In this document: one piece after another, positions 11,806 to 19,517 of the stretch
Layout of the letters: each line of letters opens with the position of its first letter
How positions within the stretch are numbered: the stretch's first letter is position 1
From: an uncultured bacterium
Lineage (GTDB): Bacteria > UBP7 > UBA6624
Direction of reading: 5' to 3'
Assembly (NCBI GenBank): GCA_964507645.1
Contig: CAZDPU010000001.1
Location: forward strand, 1-59,312
Length of the DNA: 59,312 bases
Notes under the pieces: model-generated
The model's database searches: none
What the model saw: only the letters and a program-made list of their open reading frames with translations
Told to the model about the DNA's origin: nothing
Translations under genes and position numbers: made by a program

Positions 11806-12020
11806 TATTTTATTCCTGGTAAATTCTGCTTTCTTTTTTCTAGAATTTCTTTTAGGTTTGGGTGAACTCTTTGCATGCATTTTCCATGCTTGTAAACTGC
11901 AATGTATTTTTCATCACATTCAGGACAAATCCTTGATTTATATTGAACACCGCCATTGTATTTATCCCAAATAAAATTTGAGGTTTTTTCGTAAGTTCCA
12001 GAGTTAACTGGACTATCCAT
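11805..12020 (-). CDS. Hypothetical 71-aa protein with CPEC...HGKC possible metal-binding motif
   Basis: ATG at 12020 in a TAATG overlap with the upstream stop; stop TAG overlaps G1 of tRNA-Arg. Confidence 0.55.
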   Translation of the reverse strand: MDSPVNSGTYEKTSNFIWDKYNGGVQYKSRICPECDEKYIAVYKHGKCMQRVHPNLKEILEKRKQNLPGIK

Positions 12021-13258
12021 TAAAAACCACCCTCTTGATGTCCAACAGGACATACTGAGAAAGTTAGACCTGCTGCTGCAATGGATCCTGCTGAAGAGCC
12101 GTATCCTAATTGAGCAGTTTCTTCACATACGACGATTTGTAAACCTTGCTGAACAATCTGCCTTGTTTCTTCACTTTGTCTGTATGCTTTTGTCTCTCCA
12201 GTAGGTATTTTGTTTTCGTAAACTTTCATATTGTTTTCTAGGCTGACAATCATATCTATGAGCTTGTCTGTTTCTGGGTTGATGTAAGCTCTTCCAGTTA
12301 GCTCTAAAGTTCCAATAAAATCTCTATCAATTCTCCATTCATTTTGTTCACTAACTTCTTTACCATCAAATCTTGCAAATCCAAACATATCAATCACGAT
12401 TGAAGGTTCGAGTCTGTAAGCTTTGAGATTTGGTAAGCTGAGCATGGTTCCTCCAGAAACGATTCCCTGGACATATCTTGTATCTCTTATTGGCAACCTA
12501 TATTCAATATCTATTTTTTGAAGAGTTCTCAAGCCTGGTATTGTTAAATAAACTGAACGCACCCATGTTTCCCCAAGTTTTACAGTCCTGTCAGGAAATC
12601 TTAATATATGGAAGTATTCCATTATTTGACCTAGAGAAACATTAGCTCTTTCTCTTTCGTTTTTAACCAATTCCAAAGGAACTCCTTGACTGGTTAAAAC
12701 CTCACCATTTTTGTTTCTTATAAGAACGTGATCATCATCAAGTAAATCTATTACAGAGTCCTCAATTTTTGTATCTTCTGAACTTCCAGAACTTCCACCA
12801 CCACCCGGAGCCATTCCTGCTCTTGGGTCTATTCCTCTACCTTCTCCACCATCGCCTTCTCCACCACCTGGAGGTCCACCACCTGGAGGTCCACCACCTT
12901 CTCCACCATCACCGTCAGCAGGACCACCACCACCATCAACTCCACCAGATATTCCAAAGTCCTGTCTTTCGTAAGAGTAATCATCAAATCTAACTCTCGA
13001 CCATGTTAAATTAAATTCCTCACTTTCATGTGTTTCAGAAAGAACTGCTTGTGTAAAGCCCTGTAAGCTTTCAAATTCCCCTGGAGCCCAAATTTGACCA
13101 CTCGATCCAGCTTGAATGATATATCTATGGGGAGTTGGATGCAGAGGAATTGGAGGGTTGTAAGAAAGCTGTATGAAATCATTTTTTACAACTAGGGATG
13201 CTGCAACAAGAAGGATTGCAGGAACCAAAAATAAAAGCCTAATTCCTTTAATGTTCAT
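12020..13258 (-). CDS. Hypothetical exported protein with Gly/Pro-rich linker (DUF6263-like beta-rich region)
   Basis: N-terminal hydrophobic anchor; GGGPPGGGPPGGG tract; FPDRTVKLGETW resembles the P..PV..G..W motif. Confidence 0.6.
   Translation of the reverse strand: MNIKGIRLLFLVPAILLVAASLVVKNDFIQLSYNPPIPLHPTPHRYIIQAGSSGQIWAPGEFESLQGFTQAVLSETHESEEFNLTWSRVRFDDYSYERQDFGISGGVDGGGGPADGDGGEGGGPPGGGPPGGGEGDGGEGRGIDPRAGMAPGGGGSSGSSEDTKIEDSVIDLLDDDHVLIRNKNGEVLTSQGVPLELVKNERERANVSLGQIMEYFHILRFPDRTVKLGETWVRSVYLTIPGLRTLQKIDIEYRLPIRDTRYVQGIVSGGTMLSLPNLKAYRLEPSIVIDMFGFARFDGKEVSEQNEWRIDRDFIGTLELTGRAYINPETDKLIDMIVSLENNMKVYENKIPTGETKAYRQSEETRQIVQQGLQIVVCEETAQLGYGSSAGSIAAAGLTFSVCPVGHQEGGF
12861..12899. repeat. 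15-bp coding tandem repeat CCACCACCTGGAGGT x2.6
   Basis: Seen directly; encodes GGGPP units; flanked by a duplicated CCTTCTCCACCATC. Confidence 0.85.
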
Positions 13259-13309
13259 AACCAGTCTCTTATCCTACTATATCTCTTCATTATTTAGTTT
13301 TATTTTTTA

Positions 13310-13384
13310 TGGTGGAGCTGGAGGGATTCGAACCCTCGACCCCTTGTATGCCATACAAGTGCGCTACCACTGCGCTACAGCCCC
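13310..13384 (-). tRNA. tRNA-Ala(GGC), CCA encoded
   Basis: GGGGCTG/CAGCTCC stem with G3:U70, CTTGT-ATGGCAT-ACAAG anticodon arm, TTCGAAT, terminal ACCA. Confidence 0.96.
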
Positions 13385-13729
13385 TTAAGATTCATAGATT
13401 ATTGAACAATCTTGCACTAGGCCATCTATATCCCAGTAATCTCTAGCCGTTGGTGTCATCAGGTGAACGATTGTATCTCCAAGATCCAATAGGGACCATT
13501 CTGATTCAGATTCCGACCCTTCAGGGGTGACATTGAAGCCATTTTTCTTAAGCCATTGTTTTACATTTTCCCTAAGTGTTTTTAAGTGAGTTTTATTTTG
13601 TGCAGTTGCAATGATGAAATTTTTTGTCCAGGTCATTTTCTTTTCAACATTTATCAATTTCACTTCTTCAGCAAATTCATCTAAAAGCATTAAGCTTATT
13701 TTTTTTGGATCTAGGTTTTTTTCAGCCAT
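13385..13729 (-). CDS. rsfS: Ribosome silencing factor
   Basis: FIIATA...HL, EG....W.LLDLGDTIVHLM...R.YWDID.L; nadD neighbourhood. Confidence 0.9.
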   Translation of the reverse strand: MAEKNLDPKKISLMLLDEFAEEVKLINVEKKMTWTKNFIIATAQNKTHLKTLRENVKQWLKKNGFNVTPEGSESESEWSLLDLGDTIVHLMTPTARDYWDIDGLVQDCSIIYES

Positions 13730-13732
13730 TTT

Positions 13733-14551
13733 TTAGTTGATGTTTTTTGATATCCATTGATTTAAATCATTCATTTCTGGAGACCAGTAAGGACCCATGA
13801 ATTTCCCTGGGAGTATTTCAGTCAAAGGGGATTCCCCTAGCGTCCTTATGCCTAGAACTAACACTTCTTCCATCTTTAAATTGGTTTCAATGTTTTCAAG
13901 AAATTTACTAATTACAGATATTTTTTTCAGAGTTCCTGATTTGTGAAATTTTTTAAGAATTGCGTGAGCTAGCTTTTGTTGTCTTTGTATTCTTCCTATA
14001 TCACCTAAAGAATCGTTTCTGAATCTTGCATACAAAACTGAATCTTTTCCATTTAAGTTATGAATGCCTGATTCAAAGTTTATCTTTAAGTTTTGAGAAT
14101 TGTCTTCGTATTTAAGTTCTTTTTCTATATGAACTTTTACTCCACCTAGATCATCGATTAATTTTTCCAGATCTTTGAAGTTGATTACAAGGTATCTATC
14201 AACTTTAATATTTGCTAAAGAGTTTAAAGCGCCTCTTAAGCCTGTTATGTTTCCATTATTGTGCCAACTATGGTTTATTCTGTTTGTTCCATCTTGAGTT
14301 TCAACAAGCGTATCTCTTGGTATTGAGAGTATGTTTGGAGCACCTCCGGATTTAGGTAAAGCTGCAAGAAGTATCGTATCGGGGTTTATATCTTCTTTTG
14401 ATTGGTCAAGACCAACTATAAGAATCGTTTCTGCTCTTTTTTGTTTGTATTTTTTGAAACTTTCTGGAAATTCATAACTTGACAAAAGGATGAAAAACAT
14501 TAAACTGAAAAACATCCCTAAGAAAGTTAAATTTAGGTACTTTTGTATCAT
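13733..14551 (-). CDS. LCP (LytR-CpsA-Psr) family protein
   Basis: N-terminal TM; DTILL, SIPRDT, IDDLGGV, YARFR..DIGRIQRQQ. Confidence 0.92.
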   Translation of the reverse strand: MIQKYLNLTFLGMFFSLMFFILLSSYEFPESFKKYKQKRAETILIVGLDQSKEDINPDTILLAALPKSGGAPNILSIPRDTLVETQDGTNRINHSWHNNGNITGLRGALNSLANIKVDRYLVINFKDLEKLIDDLGGVKVHIEKELKYEDNSQNLKINFESGIHNLNGKDSVLYARFRNDSLGDIGRIQRQQKLAHAILKKFHKSGTLKKISVISKFLENIETNLKMEEVLVLGIRTLGESPLTEILPGKFMGPYWSPEMNDLNQWISKNIN

Positions 14552-15108
14552 TTGTAAAGACCTCTCTTGAGAATCTTTTCTTCAACCAATTTCGGTAATA
14601 GATTTTTCACAGATTTTTTTTCCTTAATCTTCCTTCTTATTTCGGAAGATGAAATTTCCATTATTTTAGATTTGAGAAATGTTGTTTTATTGTTTTTTTC
14701 AGATTCCATTCTTCTTGCTACAACTATATTACAGTTGTCAATTAATTCATTATAGTTTTTCCAATTTTTTATATCTTTTAAATTGTCTTCCCCAATCAAA
14801 AGAGATATTTTTTTATTTTCATGATTTTTTTTAGCCCATCTGACTTGGTCTATCGAGTAACAGGTTTTATTTTTCTTTTTCTCGAAATCAGATATTATGA
14901 CGTTTTTTAATTTAGCTGTTCCTGCCTTGCAGAGCCGAACTCTTTCTTCAAATGATGCATGAAAATTTTTCCCTACAGGAGAGATGTATGTAGGGATAAC
15001 ATATATGGGTTTATATTTTTCCTTAATGCAAGAATTTATTAGCTCTAAATGTGCATTGTGAAAAGGATCAAAGGAGCCTCCAAAAATTAAAGGGTTTATT
15101 CTGGCCAT
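14548..15108 (-). CDS. nadD: Nicotinate-nucleotide adenylyltransferase
   Basis: FGGSFDPFHNAH, LIGEDN...W, ISSSEIR. Confidence 0.92.
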   Translation of the reverse strand: MARINPLIFGGSFDPFHNAHLELINSCIKEKYKPIYVIPTYISPVGKNFHASFEERVRLCKAGTAKLKNVIISDFEKKKNKTCYSIDQVRWAKKNHENKKISLLIGEDNLKDIKNWKNYNELIDNCNIVVARRMESEKNNKTTFLKSKIMEISSSEIRRKIKEKKSVKNLLPKLVEEKILKRGLYK

Positions 15109-15935
15109 TCTTTTATGCTTTTGATATTTTCAGAATCTATAGGTATTAAGGAATTTTTATATGTATAAATTTTGCATTCTCTTGGCAAGATTTCTTTTAT
15201 TTTTAAAAAATCTTTTATTTTTGTAAATCTTCCAACAAAAACAATTTTTTTTGCATTTTTTGTTTGGTGAAGCCAGTTTTTTACTTCATTTAGAGATGGT
15301 ATTAGAAGTATTTTTTCATTAATTTTCAACTTGTTAACTTTAACTCCTATTATTGGATAGCTGGGCATTACTTTGTCATACTTTCTTCCTGTTAGTTTTT
15401 CATGGATAGAAAGAGAGGAGTTTGTGTTGGATATTATTGCAGTATCACAAGGAACAAAATAATCCATCCTAAGACTCTTCTCCTCTCCAGGTTTTCCTTT
15501 TGTTATTTTTTTTGGAGACCTGTTTACAGAACTTGCAAAAGATCTATTACCCCTTCCTCCACGGCCACCTTTTAGGGTGAATGTGTCTCCAGGTTTTTCA
15601 AGTTTTTTAATTAATTCTTTTTTCAAATCCCTCAACTCTGTTCCAGTTGGAACTTTCAGGATTAGCTCTTTTCCATTTTTTCCACTTTTGTTATTTTTTC
15701 CACCACTAAAACCATTTTCAGCTTTTATAGGTTTGTTTTTTTTGAATTTGTATAAATCAAATACAGAATCATCGGCAACGATGGAAAGGTTTCCACCTTG
15801 GCCTCCGTTTCCTCCGTCAGGCCCCATGCTCGCTCTGAATTTTTGCCTCAGGAAAGAAGACCTTCCATCGCCGCCATTCCCAGCGACTAAGTGAATTTCA
15901 GTCGAATCTATGAATTTGTTGAGGAATTTACTCAG
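15096..15935 (-). CDS. obg: Obg/CgtA homologue with intact Obg fold but degenerate, truncated G domain; probable CTG start
   Basis: Frame is open 5' of the track ATG (15827): (L)[47 protein letters not shown], a classic Obg N-terminus. In-frame stop at 15939-41 and no ATG/GTG/TTG; CTG at 15933-35. Located directly after rplU-rpmA. Confidence 0.85.
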
Positions 15936-16182
15936 AATCTATTTGTGCTACTTTTTTATTACCTCTTTTGTTTACATATTTGACTATGCCATTATTCAAT
16001 GCAAACAAAGTGTAATCTTTTCCAATTCCAACATCTTTACCAGGGTGTATATTTTTACCCCTCTGCCTAACTAAAACATTTCCAGTTGAAACTTTTTGAC
16101 CATCTGAACATTTGACGCCAAGACGTTTTCCTGCAGTTGATCTTAAATTTTTAGTACTTCCCTGACCTGTTTTATGTGCCAT
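15928..16182 (-). CDS. rpmA: 50S ribosomal protein L27
   Basis: MAHK..GST.N, KRLGVK, VRQRG..IHPG..VG.GKD.TLFAL. Confidence 0.97.
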
Positions 16183-16183
16183 A

Positions 16184-16498
16184 TTAACCCTCTATTTTTA
16201 AAACTTTTAATTGGGTGTATTCTTGCCTGTGGCCAATAATTCTTTTGTAGTTCTTTTTTGCTTTGTATTTTTGGACTCTGACTTTTTTATCCTTGACGTG
16301 AGCAATGACTTCGCAAGTAACCTTTGCTTTTTCTAATAGAGGTTTTCCAATTTTGACTTTATCTTTATTTATCGTCATTAGGACCTCTTTGTAAACAATT
16401 TTTTTGCCTTTTTCTTCAGTAACCTTATCAACAAATACGGTTTCCCCTGAACAAACTAACATTTGTGTTCCTGATGCTTTAATAATTGCCTTCTTCAT
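16184..16498 (-). CDS. rplU: 50S ribosomal protein L21
   Basis: [20 protein letters not shown]; adjacent to rpmA. Confidence 0.96.
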
Positions 16499-16545
16499 GT
16501 CTTTAATAAAATAAACCCGTAATAGACTATTATATAACTTTTTTT

Positions 16546-16641
16546 ATGGAAAGATTTTTTGGACAGATAACGAACTTAGCTTTAGTACTTGCTGTTGTTG
16601 GTTTTCTTCTTTGGTTTTTTTCAGCAAAATTAAGAAAATAA
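16546..16641 (+). CDS. Putative 31-aa single-TM small protein
   Basis: Not in track; MERFFGQITNLALVLAVVGFLLWFFSAKLRK*, fills the gap up to 1 nt before the next gene. Confidence 0.5.
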   Translation: MERFFGQITNLALVLAVVGFLLWFFSAKLRK

Positions 16642-16642
16642 A

Positions 16643-18079
16643 CTAATCCCCTCTCCAGAGAACTGCAAGTAATGCAAGGCACATTTCATCTAGAGAGGTA
16701 TTTCCCAACCTTACGTCAATGGGTTCATTGATATCGTCATATTCACTCAGGGCATAGGCAAGAAAAGGGTTGTTCATGGTGTTGTCAAAAGTGCATTTGA
16801 ATTCAAGGGTGTCTCCTCCCTTTATCCTTGGGACAATCCACCTTCCTCCTGGGAATTTTGCATTGTAGTAGTACATTCTTTGATAATAGAAGTTGTAGTT
16901 TGGTGTTGCAATCAGGCATTCCTTTTTACTTTGCCCCTCTTCAGGATTTTTTCGATGGAGGATAACTTCCATGTTGGTTCCTGTATAGTGCATATGTGTT
17001 CCTATCCCAAAGATTGCTGTTTCTGGAAAGTTTTCTGGAAGTGTGAAAAGAATTGTTTCCTCATGATCTTTTACGTTTGCGGGAATTACAAAATCTGGAT
17101 ATCCTTTTTCATCATATGAGCCCGGAACAAGGCCATTTGGAATTTGATTTCCATCCTCATCAAATCTACTATCGTGGACAGAGCCCCATTGCCAAACAAG
17201 AGTTTTAAATATAGGTTCATTTTTTATTATCTCGAGGTCTAGCATTGTTGAGTCTTTTGGAGGTTCGTTGTACTCTTCATGAATGTGGTAATGTATTTGC
17301 ATGATAATCCTAGATCCCTCAGGGATATGTATTCCGGATTCCTTTGGGGGTTCGTAAGGTGGGTATCCAGGATTCCATCCCCCTATCAAACTTACTTCAA
17401 AACCTACATCGCCAAAGCAGTTGTAGTAACCTTTCTCACCAGCTGTTTCTGCAGATGCTCCTTTCTCGTCAAGCCATAATCCGACATGATGGACAACCTC
17501 TCTGTTTCCGGGAGTTATCCTGAAGTTTGTCATCCATGTGTCTCCCTCAATTTTTGGGTCAAGGACAAAGCATCTCAGCATGTCGTCTGTTCCTCCCCAC
17601 TTCTCCCCAACAATCGTGTATTCGGGAATCGTCATCTTTATGTCTGACCTGAAAGGAACCTCTTTTTTCTTCTCTTCGTTTTTTTCAATCTTTTCACCCA
17701 TGGGAAAATCAGAATCTATCCATTTTTCCAGAAGGAGTATTTCTTTTTGGGTTAGGCTGGGGTCATCTTTCCATCCGAGTTGGTTTGGTTCACATGTTTC
17801 CGTTTCTCCGGGACCCCACGGAGGCATCCTTTTTGCCTTGATTGCCCTCAAGGCACTTTTCGCCTTTTCTTTGACCTGGTCGTATGTTTCCAGAGAGAAT
17901 TCAGCAACATTCCCATCTGAATGGCATGAGATGCAGTGATCTGAGAATATTTCTGAGATATGTCCCTCCCATGTGACTTCTGATTCAACAAGAGTAAACT
18001 CTTCTTGATTTGATGTGTTCTTTTCTTGACATGAGGTGAAAATAAGTAAAAAAGCAAAAAGGAAGATTCTTTTCATCAT
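16643..18079 (-). CDS. Copper type II (PHM/DBH-like) monooxygenase lipoprotein with c-type heme motif, copy A
   Basis: Lipobox FTSC; CISCH; VVHH, QIHYH, THMH and DEMC copper-ligand motifs; ATG 18079/18076 preferred over track start 18103. Confidence 0.85.
   Translation of the reverse strand: MMKRIFLFAFLLIFTSCQEKNTSNQEEFTLVESEVTWEGHISEIFSDHCISCHSDGNVAEFSLETYDQVKEKAKSALRAIKAKRMPPWGPGETETCEPNQLGWKDDPSLTQKEILLLEKWIDSDFPMGEKIEKNEEKKKEVPFRSDIKMTIPEYTIVGEKWGGTDDMLRCFVLDPKIEGDTWMTNFRITPGNREVVHHVGLWLDEKGASAETAGEKGYYNCFGDVGFEVSLIGGWNPGYPPYEPPKESGIHIPEGSRIIMQIHYHIHEEYNEPPKDSTMLDLEIIKNEPIFKTLVWQWGSVHDSRFDEDGNQIPNGLVPGSYDEKGYPDFVIPANVKDHEETILFTLPENFPETAIFGIGTHMHYTGTNMEVILHRKNPEEGQSKKECLIATPNYNFYYQRMYYYNAKFPGGRWIVPRIKGGDTLEFKCTFDNTMNNPFLAYALSEYDDINEPIDVRLGNTSLDEMCLALLAVLWRGD
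16767..18046. repeat. Direct repeat, copy 1 (1280 bp, apparently identical to 18202-19481)
   Basis: Offset 1435; encoded protein and alternative-frame ORFs are identical between copies; boundaries read by eye. Confidence 0.9.
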
Positions 18080-18080
18080 T

Positions 18081-19517
18081 TTAACTTTTATTGAGAACAG
18101 CAATCAATGCTAGGCACATTTCATCTAAAGAACTTGGTCCCAACCTTACGTCAATGGGCTCATTGATATCGTCATATTCACTCAGGGCATAGGCAACGAA
18201 TGGGTTGTTCATGGTGTTGTCAAAAGTGCATTTGAATTCAAGGGTGTCTCCTCCCTTTATCCTTGGGACAATCCACCTTCCTCCTGGGAATTTTGCATTG
18301 TAGTAGTACATTCTTTGATAATAGAAGTTGTAGTTTGGTGTTGCAATCAGGCATTCCTTTTTACTTTGCCCCTCTTCAGGATTTTTTCGATGGAGGATAA
18401 CTTCCATGTTGGTTCCTGTATAGTGCATATGTGTTCCTATCCCAAAGATTGCTGTTTCTGGAAAGTTTTCTGGAAGTGTGAAAAGAATTGTTTCCTCATG
18501 ATCTTTTACGTTTGCGGGAATTACAAAATCTGGATATCCTTTTTCATCATATGAGCCCGGAACAAGGCCATTTGGAATTTGATTTCCATCCTCATCAAAT
18601 CTACTATCGTGGACAGAGCCCCATTGCCAAACAAGAGTTTTAAATATAGGTTCATTTTTTATTATCTCGAGGTCTAGCATTGTTGAGTCTTTTGGAGGTT
18701 CGTTGTACTCTTCATGAATGTGGTAATGTATTTGCATGATAATCCTAGATCCCTCAGGGATATGTATTCCGGATTCCTTTGGGGGTTCGTAAGGTGGGTA
18801 TCCAGGATTCCATCCCCCTATCAAACTTACTTCAAAACCTACATCGCCAAAGCAGTTGTAGTAACCTTTCTCACCAGCTGTTTCTGCAGATGCTCCTTTC
18901 TCGTCAAGCCATAATCCGACATGATGGACAACCTCTCTGTTTCCGGGAGTTATCCTGAAGTTTGTCATCCATGTGTCTCCCTCAATTTTTGGGTCAAGGA
19001 CAAAGCATCTCAGCATGTCGTCTGTTCCTCCCCACTTCTCCCCAACAATCGTGTATTCGGGAATCGTCATCTTTATGTCTGACCTGAAAGGAACCTCTTT
19101 TTTCTTCTCTTCGTTTTTTTCAATCTTTTCACCCATGGGAAAATCAGAATCTATCCATTTTTCCAGAAGGAGTATTTCTTTTTGGGTTAGGCTGGGGTCA
19201 TCTTTCCATCCGAGTTGGTTTGGTTCACATGTTTCCGTTTCTCCGGGACCCCACGGAGGCATCCTTTTTGCCTTGATTGCCCTCAAGGCACTTTTCGCCT
19301 TTTCTTTGACCTGGTCGTATGTTTCCAGAGAGAATTCAGCAACATTCCCATCTGAATGGCATGAGATGCAGTGATCTGAGAATATTTCTGAGATATGTCC
19401 CTCCCATGTGACTTCTGATTCAACAAGAGTAAACTCTTCTTGATTTGATGTGTTCTTTTCTTGACATGAGGTGAAAATAAGAAATAGGAAAATCAGAGTT
19501 GTTTTTTTTACTTCCAT
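18081..19517 (-). CDS. Copper type II (PHM/DBH-like) monooxygenase lipoprotein with c-type heme motif, copy B
   Basis: Same motifs as copy A; differs in signal peptide and last ~40 codons. Confidence 0.85.
   Translation of the reverse strand: MEVKKTTLIFLFLIFTSCQEKNTSNQEEFTLVESEVTWEGHISEIFSDHCISCHSDGNVAEFSLETYDQVKEKAKSALRAIKAKRMPPWGPGETETCEPNQLGWKDDPSLTQKEILLLEKWIDSDFPMGEKIEKNEEKKKEVPFRSDIKMTIPEYTIVGEKWGGTDDMLRCFVLDPKIEGDTWMTNFRITPGNREVVHHVGLWLDEKGASAETAGEKGYYNCFGDVGFEVSLIGGWNPGYPPYEPPKESGIHIPEGSRIIMQIHYHIHEEYNEPPKDSTMLDLEIIKNEPIFKTLVWQWGSVHDSRFDEDGNQIPNGLVPGSYDEKGYPDFVIPANVKDHEETILFTLPENFPETAIFGIGTHMHYTGTNMEVILHRKNPEEGQSKKECLIATPNYNFYYQRMYYYNAKFPGGRWIVPRIKGGDTLEFKCTFDNTMNNPFVAYALSEYDDINEPIDVRLGPSSLDEMCLALIAVLNKS
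18202..19481. repeat. Direct repeat, copy 2
   Basis: Matches 16767-18046. Confidence 0.9.

Follow-up and report, generated by a model that had tools for sequence, protein, structure and literature searches.

The obg locus

The window analyzed here, a stretch of 59,312 nucleotides from the genome of an uncultured marine bacterium (G000; 1.135 Mb in 64 contigs, 82% complete), carries on its reverse strand the rplU operon, in which the frame that follows rplU and rpmA, at the position of obg, encodes a complete N-terminal Obg fold joined to the relic of a G domain from which the motifs for guanine nucleotide binding have been lost. Obg, a GTPase of ribosome assembly present in almost all bacteria, is regarded as essential and universally conserved. 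We consider it probable that this frame, the only obg orthologue of its lineage, now specifies a nucleotide-independent class i pseudoGTPase that serves as a passive placeholder in late assembly of the 50S ribosomal subunit. The features of the locus, those of the obg-like frame first, are as follows.

15096..15938, reverse strand: obg-like frame, 280 codons from stop to stop; the sole GTP1_OBG match of the genome
15933..15938, reverse strand: probable non-canonical start region, ATT then CTG, the only near-cognate options (usage presumed)
15462..15911, reverse strand: Obg fold, a beta-barrel with a Gly-rich polyproline-type protrusion (Pfam GTP1_OBG; blocks of the structural model mostly at a predicted local distance difference test [pLDDT] score of 86 to 95)
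15099..15458, reverse strand: relic G domain (pseudoGTPase domain), residues 160 to 279, delimited from alignment A1, column conservation, models, fold matches and hhalign
15405..15431, reverse strand: former P-loop (G1) position, reading SNTNSSLSI, with no GK[ST]; variable among the seven orthologues
16184..16498, reverse strand: rplU (bL21), first gene of the operon (Pfam Ribosomal_L21p, 3.6e-28)
15928..16182, reverse strand: rpmA (bL27), overlapping the 5' end of obg by its final codons, as read from the DNA (Pfam Ribosomal_L27, 4e-31)
14548..15108, reverse strand: nadD, nicotinate-nucleotide adenylyltransferase-like (Pfam CTP_transf_like, 1.4e-17)
13733..14551, reverse strand: LytR-CpsA-Psr (LCP) family gene between nadD and rsfS (Pfam LytR_cpsA_psr, 1.3e-33)
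13385..13729, reverse strand: rsfS, ribosomal silencing factor (Pfam RsfS, 3.4e-21)
13310..13384, reverse strand: tRNA-Ala(GGC), abutting the end of rsfS (ARAGORN)

The product has a full Gly-rich Obg domain, as an earlier note on this DNA had claimed: all five motifs quoted there are found in the frame, and the Pfam profile GTP1_OBG matches residues 10 to 159 over profile positions 1 to 152 of 155 (E value of 1.8e-44; 151.5 bits against a cut-off of 27). The comparison of GTP1_OBG with MMR_HSR1 that the note had put forward as a check detected the Obg fold and left the G domain undetected, the latter Pfam profile giving no match in this protein even at an E value of ≤0.1. Both NCBIfam Obg equivalog models matched only over profile positions 1 to 169 of approximately 327 to 329 and fell below their cut-offs (TIGR02729, 161 bits against 280.25; NF008956, 162.5 bits against 300). 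Set against the definition of the Obg/CgtA family, the protein has the Obg fold and lacks both the P-loop GTPase motifs and an equivalog-level score; its position, downstream of rplU-rpmA and as the sole copy in the genome, is that of obg. Judged from its sequence, the protein is orthologous to Obg in both fold and position but falls short of the family's criteria for a GTPase.

Between 13310 and 16498, neighboring genes overlap or lie no more than 3 bases apart. The obg stop codon occupies 15096 to 15098, and the ATG of nadD (at 15108) lies 13 nucleotides (nt) inside the 3' end of obg, an overlap kept in all six genomes of the genus. The rplU-rpmA-obg-nadD-rsfS context originally described is supported by the Pfam matches, except that an LCP-family gene intervenes between nadD and rsfS; this gene has the same position in a genome of the sister family (G007), where the order is hflX-rplU-rpmA-obg-nadD-lcp-rsfS. 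A scan of 13200 to 16800 for promoters and terminators gave counts no higher than the shuffled expectation.

Loss of the nucleotide-binding motifs

Motif positions were read from a MAFFT alignment (A1) of 21 sequences, comprising the window protein, six orthologues, the sister-family Obg and 13 canonical Obgs, and from an HMMER alignment to E. coli ObgE (chain 4csu_9). The canonical patterns, namely, G1 (GxxxxGK[ST]), G2 (YPFTT), G3 (DxxG) and G4 (NKxD), are displayed by the canonical rows of A1. At G1, the window protein reads SNTNSSLS opposite GxPNxGKS; at G2, it has YPI and a 6-residue deletion opposite YPFTTLxP; at G3 and switch II, it has LIPSLNEVK and then an 8-residue deletion opposite DIPGLIEGAxxGxGLG; and at G4, YKNS stands opposite NKxD, with YGSS or YGLS in two of the species. 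The chain stops before G5, and the C-terminal third of the G domain is absent. Across species, the former P-loop reads NTNSSLS, NTDFSLR, NDILCLK and RGSEARS. The earlier readings of SNTNSSLS at G1 and LIPS at G3, and the absence of NKxD, are borne out in both alignments, and the statement that the YPFTT of G2 had gone holds for all but the YP, which is retained, the remainder having been lost with the 6-residue deletion. The view that no room was left for a normal G domain is right about the motifs, but some 120 residues of scaffold persist, and the domain has been hollowed out rather than deleted.

In comparison with canonical Obg/CgtA/ObgE (TIGR02729; structures 1LNZ, 1UDX and 5M04 and the 50S-bound forms 4CSU and 7BL2), the window protein is alike in the gene order rplU-rpmA-obg and likewise has a complete Obg fold with all of the Gly-rich motifs, but it has none of the motifs G1 to G5, its switch I and switch II regions are shorter by 6 and 8 residues, respectively, and the chain includes neither the final third of the G domain nor a C-terminal domain. 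The G motifs for nucleotide binding are absent, as in class i pseudoGTPases. Since the P-loop K and S, the switch I Thr, DxxG, NKxD and G5 are all missing, the relic should neither bind nor hydrolyze GTP, nor should it sense guanosine tetraphosphate (ppGpp).

Predicted structure

A full-length model built on the 21-row alignment had a pLDDT of 83.2 and a predicted template modeling (pTM) score of 0.76. All 12 Foldseek matches at an E value of ≤0.001 were Obg-family chains, and the best superposition was with ObgE on a native pre-50S particle (7bl2; template modeling [TM] score of 0.78 over 319 columns), so that among canonical Obgs, the predicted two-domain shape comes closest to that of the ribosome-bound form. 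Structure prediction, another check named in the earlier note, thus retained an Obg-like two-domain shape.

Because canonical Obgs sat in the full-length alignment, the relic was also modeled by itself from its own seven sequences, and the best such model had a pLDDT of 75.8 and a pTM of 0.72. When this model was compared with 48,161 chains in a non-Foldseek search, the best 50 rows had Z scores of 8.4 to 11.2 with 103 to 127 of 130 residues aligned, and every title among them that named a molecule named a G protein (Arf6, Rab, Rho, Sar1, SR-beta, MnmE, EngA, FeoB, SelB, IF2 or HflX). Alignment of the relic sequences with the canonical Obg G-domain columns by hhalign gave a probability of 48% and an E value of 1.8e-4 across 101 columns, and the register agreed with that of MAFFT. 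The predicted topology is beta1-alpha1-beta2-beta3-alpha2-beta4-alpha3-beta5 followed by a short tail strand, and the relic is predicted to retain the G-domain fold (P-loop NTPase, TRAFAC type).

Distribution and polarity of the loss

The phylum is represented in the collection by eight species genomes, of which seven (G000 to G006) form the family of the window, six of them belonging to one genus and G006 standing apart, while G007 is the sole genome of the second family. All seven genomes of the window's family, from two genera, have obg frames of 277 to 303 amino acids (aa) with the same relic, and the shared loss among relatives that the earlier note proposed to look for therefore extends to 7/7 of the family. 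In a wider sample, the Obg fold was matched in 37 of 41 genomes, and the 30 matches outside the family, those of G007 and 29 more distant genomes, are frames of 331 to 447 aa. The Obg of G007 (L049:2760-3776, reverse strand; 338 aa) passes TIGR02729 with 303.5 bits and has an MMR_HSR1 match. No full-length relative is closer to the window protein (28% identity in A1); the G007 protein stands in the same operon order and, unlike the window protein, keeps G1 (LPGAGKS), YPFTT and NKID. Because this genome combines the same gene order with a G domain, the short form is the positional orthologue of the full-length form, and the change is a loss. A separate feature of the G007 protein is that its G3 reads ELPA where canonical Obgs have DxPG; to judge from these residues, this may be a first step toward loss or an intermediate state with an altered switch II.

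Larger sequence collections gave a similar distribution. In a collection of 5.8 billion proteins (8000 candidates scored), the best 120 of 6608 matches contained six clusters with PF01018 only, all from this genus, and the other 114 clusters carried PF01926. A profile of the seven relics gave five matches at an E value of ≤0.001 among 1.84 billion representative proteins: four were relic-type Obgs (the window's own, a fragment and the GC-richer relatives P0140 and P0141), the fifth was a marginal match of 35 residues within a 1422-aa protein, and no ordinary GTPases were among them. As the profile hits no ordinary GTPase, the relic appears to have drifted beyond the reach of HMMER and to be confined to this clade among sequenced proteins. 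The only clusters without PF01926 found in the ESM Atlas were two of 163 to 171 aa, labeled "GTP1/OBG domain-containing," with a score of 0.76, which is below the meaningful range, and these may be fragments. A related-locus search of genome contigs returned three loci of the same genus and one ordinary Obg.

Selection on the two domains

Ratios of nonsynonymous to synonymous substitution (dN/dS) were computed by the Nei-Gojobori method between the six genomes of the genus, from pairs with dS values up to approximately 1.5; synonymous sites were saturated in comparisons with G006. Values were 0.06 to 0.27 for the Obg fold, 0.09 to 0.23 for residues 161 to 235 of the relic, 0.18 to 0.61 for the last 45 residues and 0 to 0.60 for residues 8 to 37, which lie upstream of the first ATG. 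In the same genomes, the neighboring genes gave 0.04 to 0.10 (rplU), 0 to 0.26 (rpmA), 0.06 to 0.24 (nadD), 0.04 to 0.10 (lcp) and 0.02 to 0.08 (rsfS). The relic is constrained about as much as nadD. The expectation of the earlier note that dN/dS would be below 1 is satisfied well below that limit in both halves of the protein, which is purifying selection.

Constraint is unevenly placed within the relic. In the short forms, few columns vary as much as those of the former P-loop and switch II, where the majority residue has a share of 0.29 to 0.86; in the same columns of the 13 canonical Obgs, its share is 0.62 to 1.0. The core strands TAIIS, ILLIP and IVFVG are fixed in the short forms, and a set of residues absent from canonical Obgs (F160, P162, C163, H178, T182-G183-R184 and E207) is newly invariant in all seven orthologues. 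As a pattern in aligned sequences, this reads as the signature of a retained scaffold with an abandoned active site.

Reading frame, start codon and integrity of the gene

The frame encodes 280 aa from the ATT at 15938 or 279 aa from the CTG at 15935. The earlier description of a product of about 279 aa whose end overlaps nadD is correct as to the overlap, whereas the length presumes the CTG start. There is no ATG, GTG or TTG between the upstream stop codon and Met37, and the frame, which opens with TAG-ATT-CTG, overlaps the end of rpmA. All six genomes of the genus have the CTG, and no other in-frame near-cognate codon is common to them, ATT being ACT in one; the NCBI records of two sister species begin at ATT and describe a "hypothetical protein" of 279 aa. 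Because residues 8 to 37 are conserved and constrained, a near-cognate start (CTG or ATT) coupled to the termination of rpmA is likely.

Two other solutions were considered and rejected. A start at Met37, which yields the 243-aa product of the gene callers, would leave out residues 8 to 37, which hold the first Gly-rich motif under purifying selection, and a frameshift fusion of bL27 to Obg is precluded by the TAG just upstream of the obg frame and by the lack of a slippery sequence between this TAG and the rpmA stop. In none of the six genomes of the genus (the window and loci L044 to L047 and L050) does the obg frame begin at an ATG, GTG or TTG, and gene callers therefore shorten the product to 240 to 243 aa.

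The window's own 243-aa call is present exactly on 21 contigs. Contigs from two other DNA studies are exact over 15068 to 15419, 15321 to 15513 and 15872 to 16040, and no indel was found in any of four runs, which answers the possibility of a deletion or misassembly raised by the earlier note. Contigs from two RNA libraries are exact over 15103 to 15280, 15640 to 15818 and 15824 to 16503, the last of which joins rplU, rpmA and the 5' end of obg; these contigs are a hint of expression.

Other GTPases in the phylum

GTP1_OBG has one match per genome in all eight genomes of the phylum, and no second obg was found in the window's own genome or in six sister genomes, which runs counter to the possibility, also raised beforehand, of a decaying paralogue beside a complete copy. 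The G domain of the G007 Obg, used as a query, found no candidate in the window's own genome and only weak matches (E values of 0.004 to 0.1; frames of 449, 420 and 697 aa) in three of the other six genomes of the family; none of the seven yielded an Obg-type G domain standing on its own.

The window's genome contains 12 MMR_HSR1 matches in 11 proteins, none of which is the Obg-like one. Scored against NCBIfam, HflX reached 374.5 bits, YlqF/RbgA reached 174.5 (cut-off of 208), YchF reached 167 (cut-off of 279) and a MeaB-like protein reached 160 (cut-off of 241). The remaining proteins are read, from their sequences, as a Der-like protein with two G domains, IF2, LepA, two EF-G-type proteins, EF-Tu and guanylate kinase (Gmk). 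The other GTPases all keep their P-loops, and the loss is therefore specific to Obg and not part of a genome-wide decay. The products of the lineage are generally fast evolving, and YchF (G000:C20:8216-9253), YlqF/RbgA (G000:C7:13164-13970) and the MeaB-like protein (G000:C40:3435-4235), all on the reverse strand, are near full length despite their scores below the cut-off.

Searches for further ribosome assembly GTPases passed the cut-off for Era only in G007 (1/8), the best matches in the seven genomes of the window's family being the Der-like protein, and for RsgA in none of the eight genomes. The YsxC/YihA cut-off was likewise passed in 0/8, a weaker result since among 14 control genomes, only 6 yielded a match above that cut-off. 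No Era-like remnant emerged when the window's genome was searched with KH_2; the three matches, in frames of 227, 125 and 710 aa, are interpreted from their lengths as S3, a small KH protein and a PNPase-like protein. The lineage thus seems to have a very small set of ribosome assembly GTPases, and the window's family, in which Era, YsxC and RsgA were not detected, would be an exception outside the candidate phyla radiation (CPR). RelA/SpoT was found in all eight genomes, and (p)ppGpp is probably made in the lineage.

A proposed role on the large ribosomal subunit

In E. coli ObgE, the N-terminal Obg fold extends into the peptidyl-transferase centre and holds helix 89 (H89). The available account (PMC4028186) describes rRNA (H89 to H93 and the A-loop) as the sole contact of this domain, made by basic residues in three of its loops; it also reports that binding to the 50S subunit is almost lost in the double mutants K27E/K31E and R136G/R139G and that a protein deprived of its C-terminal domain still blocks subunit association. 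ObgE has been placed, with RsfS, YjgA and RluD, on the last pre-50S states, and it has been proposed that maturation of H89 triggers its GTPase, with release from the nearly mature 50S subunit (bioRxiv 10.64898/2026.02.15.706057). Five of the nine rRNA-contact residues named in the first of these sources (R25, K27, K81, R136 and R139) are kept in the window protein as R30, K32, K86, R139 and K142.

We suggest that the retained Obg fold would dock at the nascent peptidyl-transferase centre and hold H89 passively, acting as a placeholder or chaperone of this region on late pre-50S particles. It would also form a steric block to subunit joining and, with the RsfS encoded in the same operon, help to keep the immature 50S subunit from the 30S subunit. 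Release would be driven by the maturing conformation of the rRNA or by a competing or incoming ligand rather than by GTP hydrolysis, and there would be neither a nucleotide-timed checkpoint nor sensing of ppGpp. The protein would be made from the CTG or ATT start coupled to rpmA termination and be maintained by purifying selection. We infer the lack of nucleotide binding and the binding to the 50S subunit because the motifs are missing and the Obg fold is kept; the mechanism of release and the start codon are likewise deduced.

A number of points weigh against the proposed placeholder role or against parts of it. Apo-ObgE binds the 50S subunit weakly, and guanine nucleotides, ppGpp above all, raise its binding (PMC4028186); without a nucleotide, an Obg might thus be a poor binder, unless the remodeled relic makes up for it. 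Substitutions (R24L, K31S, R76N and R82N) affect four of the nine rRNA-contact residues, with other basic residues in the vicinity. Sequence alone leaves room for nucleotide binding at an unconventional site, and the choice of start codon is a deduction from the frame. The alignment behind the full-length model held canonical Obgs, which biases its shape toward theirs, and of the five relic-only models, two had a pLDDT of 74 to 76 and three had a pLDDT of 41 to 42. The seven genomes of the family are 71 to 86% complete, and a second obg or a partner could sit in unassembled DNA. The RNA-library contigs come from what is likely the source-sample study, and such libraries can hold DNA. Finally, large-subunit 23S rRNA, in which the H89, sarcin-ricin loop and H43-44 sites were sought, is assembled in none of the seven family genomes and only in G007. 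The G007 23S rRNA (L064, G007:C23:189-4944) has a peculiarity of its own: its match extends over 4756 nt, whereas the model has 2925 positions, so that some 1.8 kb of extra sequence, as insertions or introns, must lie within it.

The strongest competing explanation, which we nonetheless regard as unlikely, is that the Obg fold and the remodeled relic have been repurposed outside ribosome assembly, for instance to bind a different partner by way of the newly fixed surface, the 50S role having been lost or taken over by Der, YlqF/RbgA and HflX. It would account for the new invariant residues in all seven orthologues (F160, P162, C163, H178, TGR at 182 to 184 and E207), for the four altered rRNA contacts and for an Obg fold scoring 151.5 bits, where 28 of the 29 matched genomes outside the phylum score 178 to 231 (the 29th, G033, scores 148.8); E. 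coli ObgE is, moreover, reported to have nonribosomal partners such as LpxA (PMC11549432). Yet in every genome examined, obg has kept its place in the rplU-rpmA-obg-nadD-lcp-rsfS operon, whose frames overlap, the Gly-rich motifs are all kept, as are, for the most part, the two loop pairs most critical for binding, and the predicted arrangement of the two domains fits ribosome-bound ObgE best (TM of 0.78).

Less probable again is a GTPase supplied in trans, in which the relic is the docking site for another G protein (one encoded in unassembled DNA or a remaining GTPase such as Der, YlqF, HflX or YchF), which gives the complex a nucleotide switch. The incomplete genomes and the conserved surface kept by the relic speak for it, as does the presence of EngA/Der together with ObgE on late pre-50S states of E. 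coli (bioRxiv 10.64898/2026.02.15.706057), but no Obg-type G domain emerged from the seven family genomes with the G007 query or from the 12 MMR_HSR1 matches of the window's genome, and a chance miss of the same gene in seven independent assemblies is unlikely. We attach marginally less weight still to a switch that is divergent rather than dead, with a noncanonical pocket for a nucleotide or some other small ligand. The Rossmann-like core kept in the models, the invariant TGR motif and invariant His near the former nucleotide site and the probable production of (p)ppGpp, with RelA/SpoT in 8/8 genomes, are compatible with such a pocket; against it, all five G motifs are gone, the part that bears G4 and G5 and holds the base is deleted, and the former P-loop differs between species, unlike a constrained phosphate-binding loop. 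That the frame is an artifact (of misassembly or of a deletion private to one strain) or a pseudogene being lost, as the missing canonical start, the calls that begin at Met37 (243 aa) and the faster evolution of the protein tail (dN/dS of up to 0.61) might suggest, is highly improbable and, as far as computation goes, refuted, given the same architecture in seven species-level genomes and in the metagenome proteins P0140 and P0141, the exact protein on 21 contigs, the indel-free matches from two other DNA studies, dN/dS far below 1 in every segment including that upstream of Met37 and a frame uninterrupted by stops in every genome.

Relation to known systems

The placeholder role proposed here has partial parallels. 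Tsr1, a eukaryotic pre-40S factor, is described as an inactive mimic of translational GTPases (PMC4895721) and matches the passive, switchless role that we propose; unlike the window Obg, it belongs to an EF-Tu/SelB-like family, acts on the other subunit, is eukaryotic and coexists with active paralogues, whereas here the dead protein is the sole copy of a near-universal bacterial GTPase. Class i pseudoGTPases such as the domain of AAGAB keep the G fold, have lost the motifs and are reused as scaffolds for proteins or assembly, but those described in the source consulted (PMC12490416) are eukaryotic and unrelated to Obg. The mitochondrial proteins GTPBP5/MTG2 and GTPBP10, seen on large-subunit intermediates of the mitoribosome (7ODT, 7O9K and 8PK0), match our model with TM scores of 0.55 to 0.70; they are Obg-fold factors that stand beside a module homologous to RsfS in late large-subunit maturation, and they are described as homologues of ObgE, itself a GTPase-driven placeholder (bioRxiv 10.64898/2026.02.15.706057). 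The papers found in our literature search contained no pseudoGTPase Obg and no bacterial class i pseudoGTPase of ribosome assembly; the main text of one survey (PMC12641178) does not discuss domain loss, and its supplements might list this lineage.

An only Obg that has lost every nucleotide-binding element and is still under purifying selection is a natural separation-of-function variant, and it makes testable the questions of whether the Obg fold alone is enough for the essential assembly role and of what replaces the GTP/ppGpp checkpoint. A wider interpretation, to which we give about an even chance, is that a whole bacterial family runs on an Obg unable to bind GTP or ppGpp, with the placeholder fold indispensable and the GTP switch a dispensable add-on for timing or regulation, and that this non-CPR lineage may have a set of ribosome assembly GTPases among the smallest known and be a natural minimal system for 50S and 30S maturation. 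Obg and Era models are among the usual bacterial marker sets, and surveys of presence and absence and estimates of completeness that use these models will miscount such genomes.

Other features near the operon

Just upstream of the rplU operon, on the same strand, the window holds two near-identical genes in tandem (16643 to 18103 and 18081 to 19517), whose products of 478 to 486 aa have a signal-like N terminus and a CxxCH motif; the pair looks like a recent tandem duplication. On the other side, the reverse-strand gene at 12020 to 13258 encodes a 412-aa protein with a long low-complexity insert rich in Gly, Pro, Asp and Glu, and it is also adjacent to the operon in G003 and G006.

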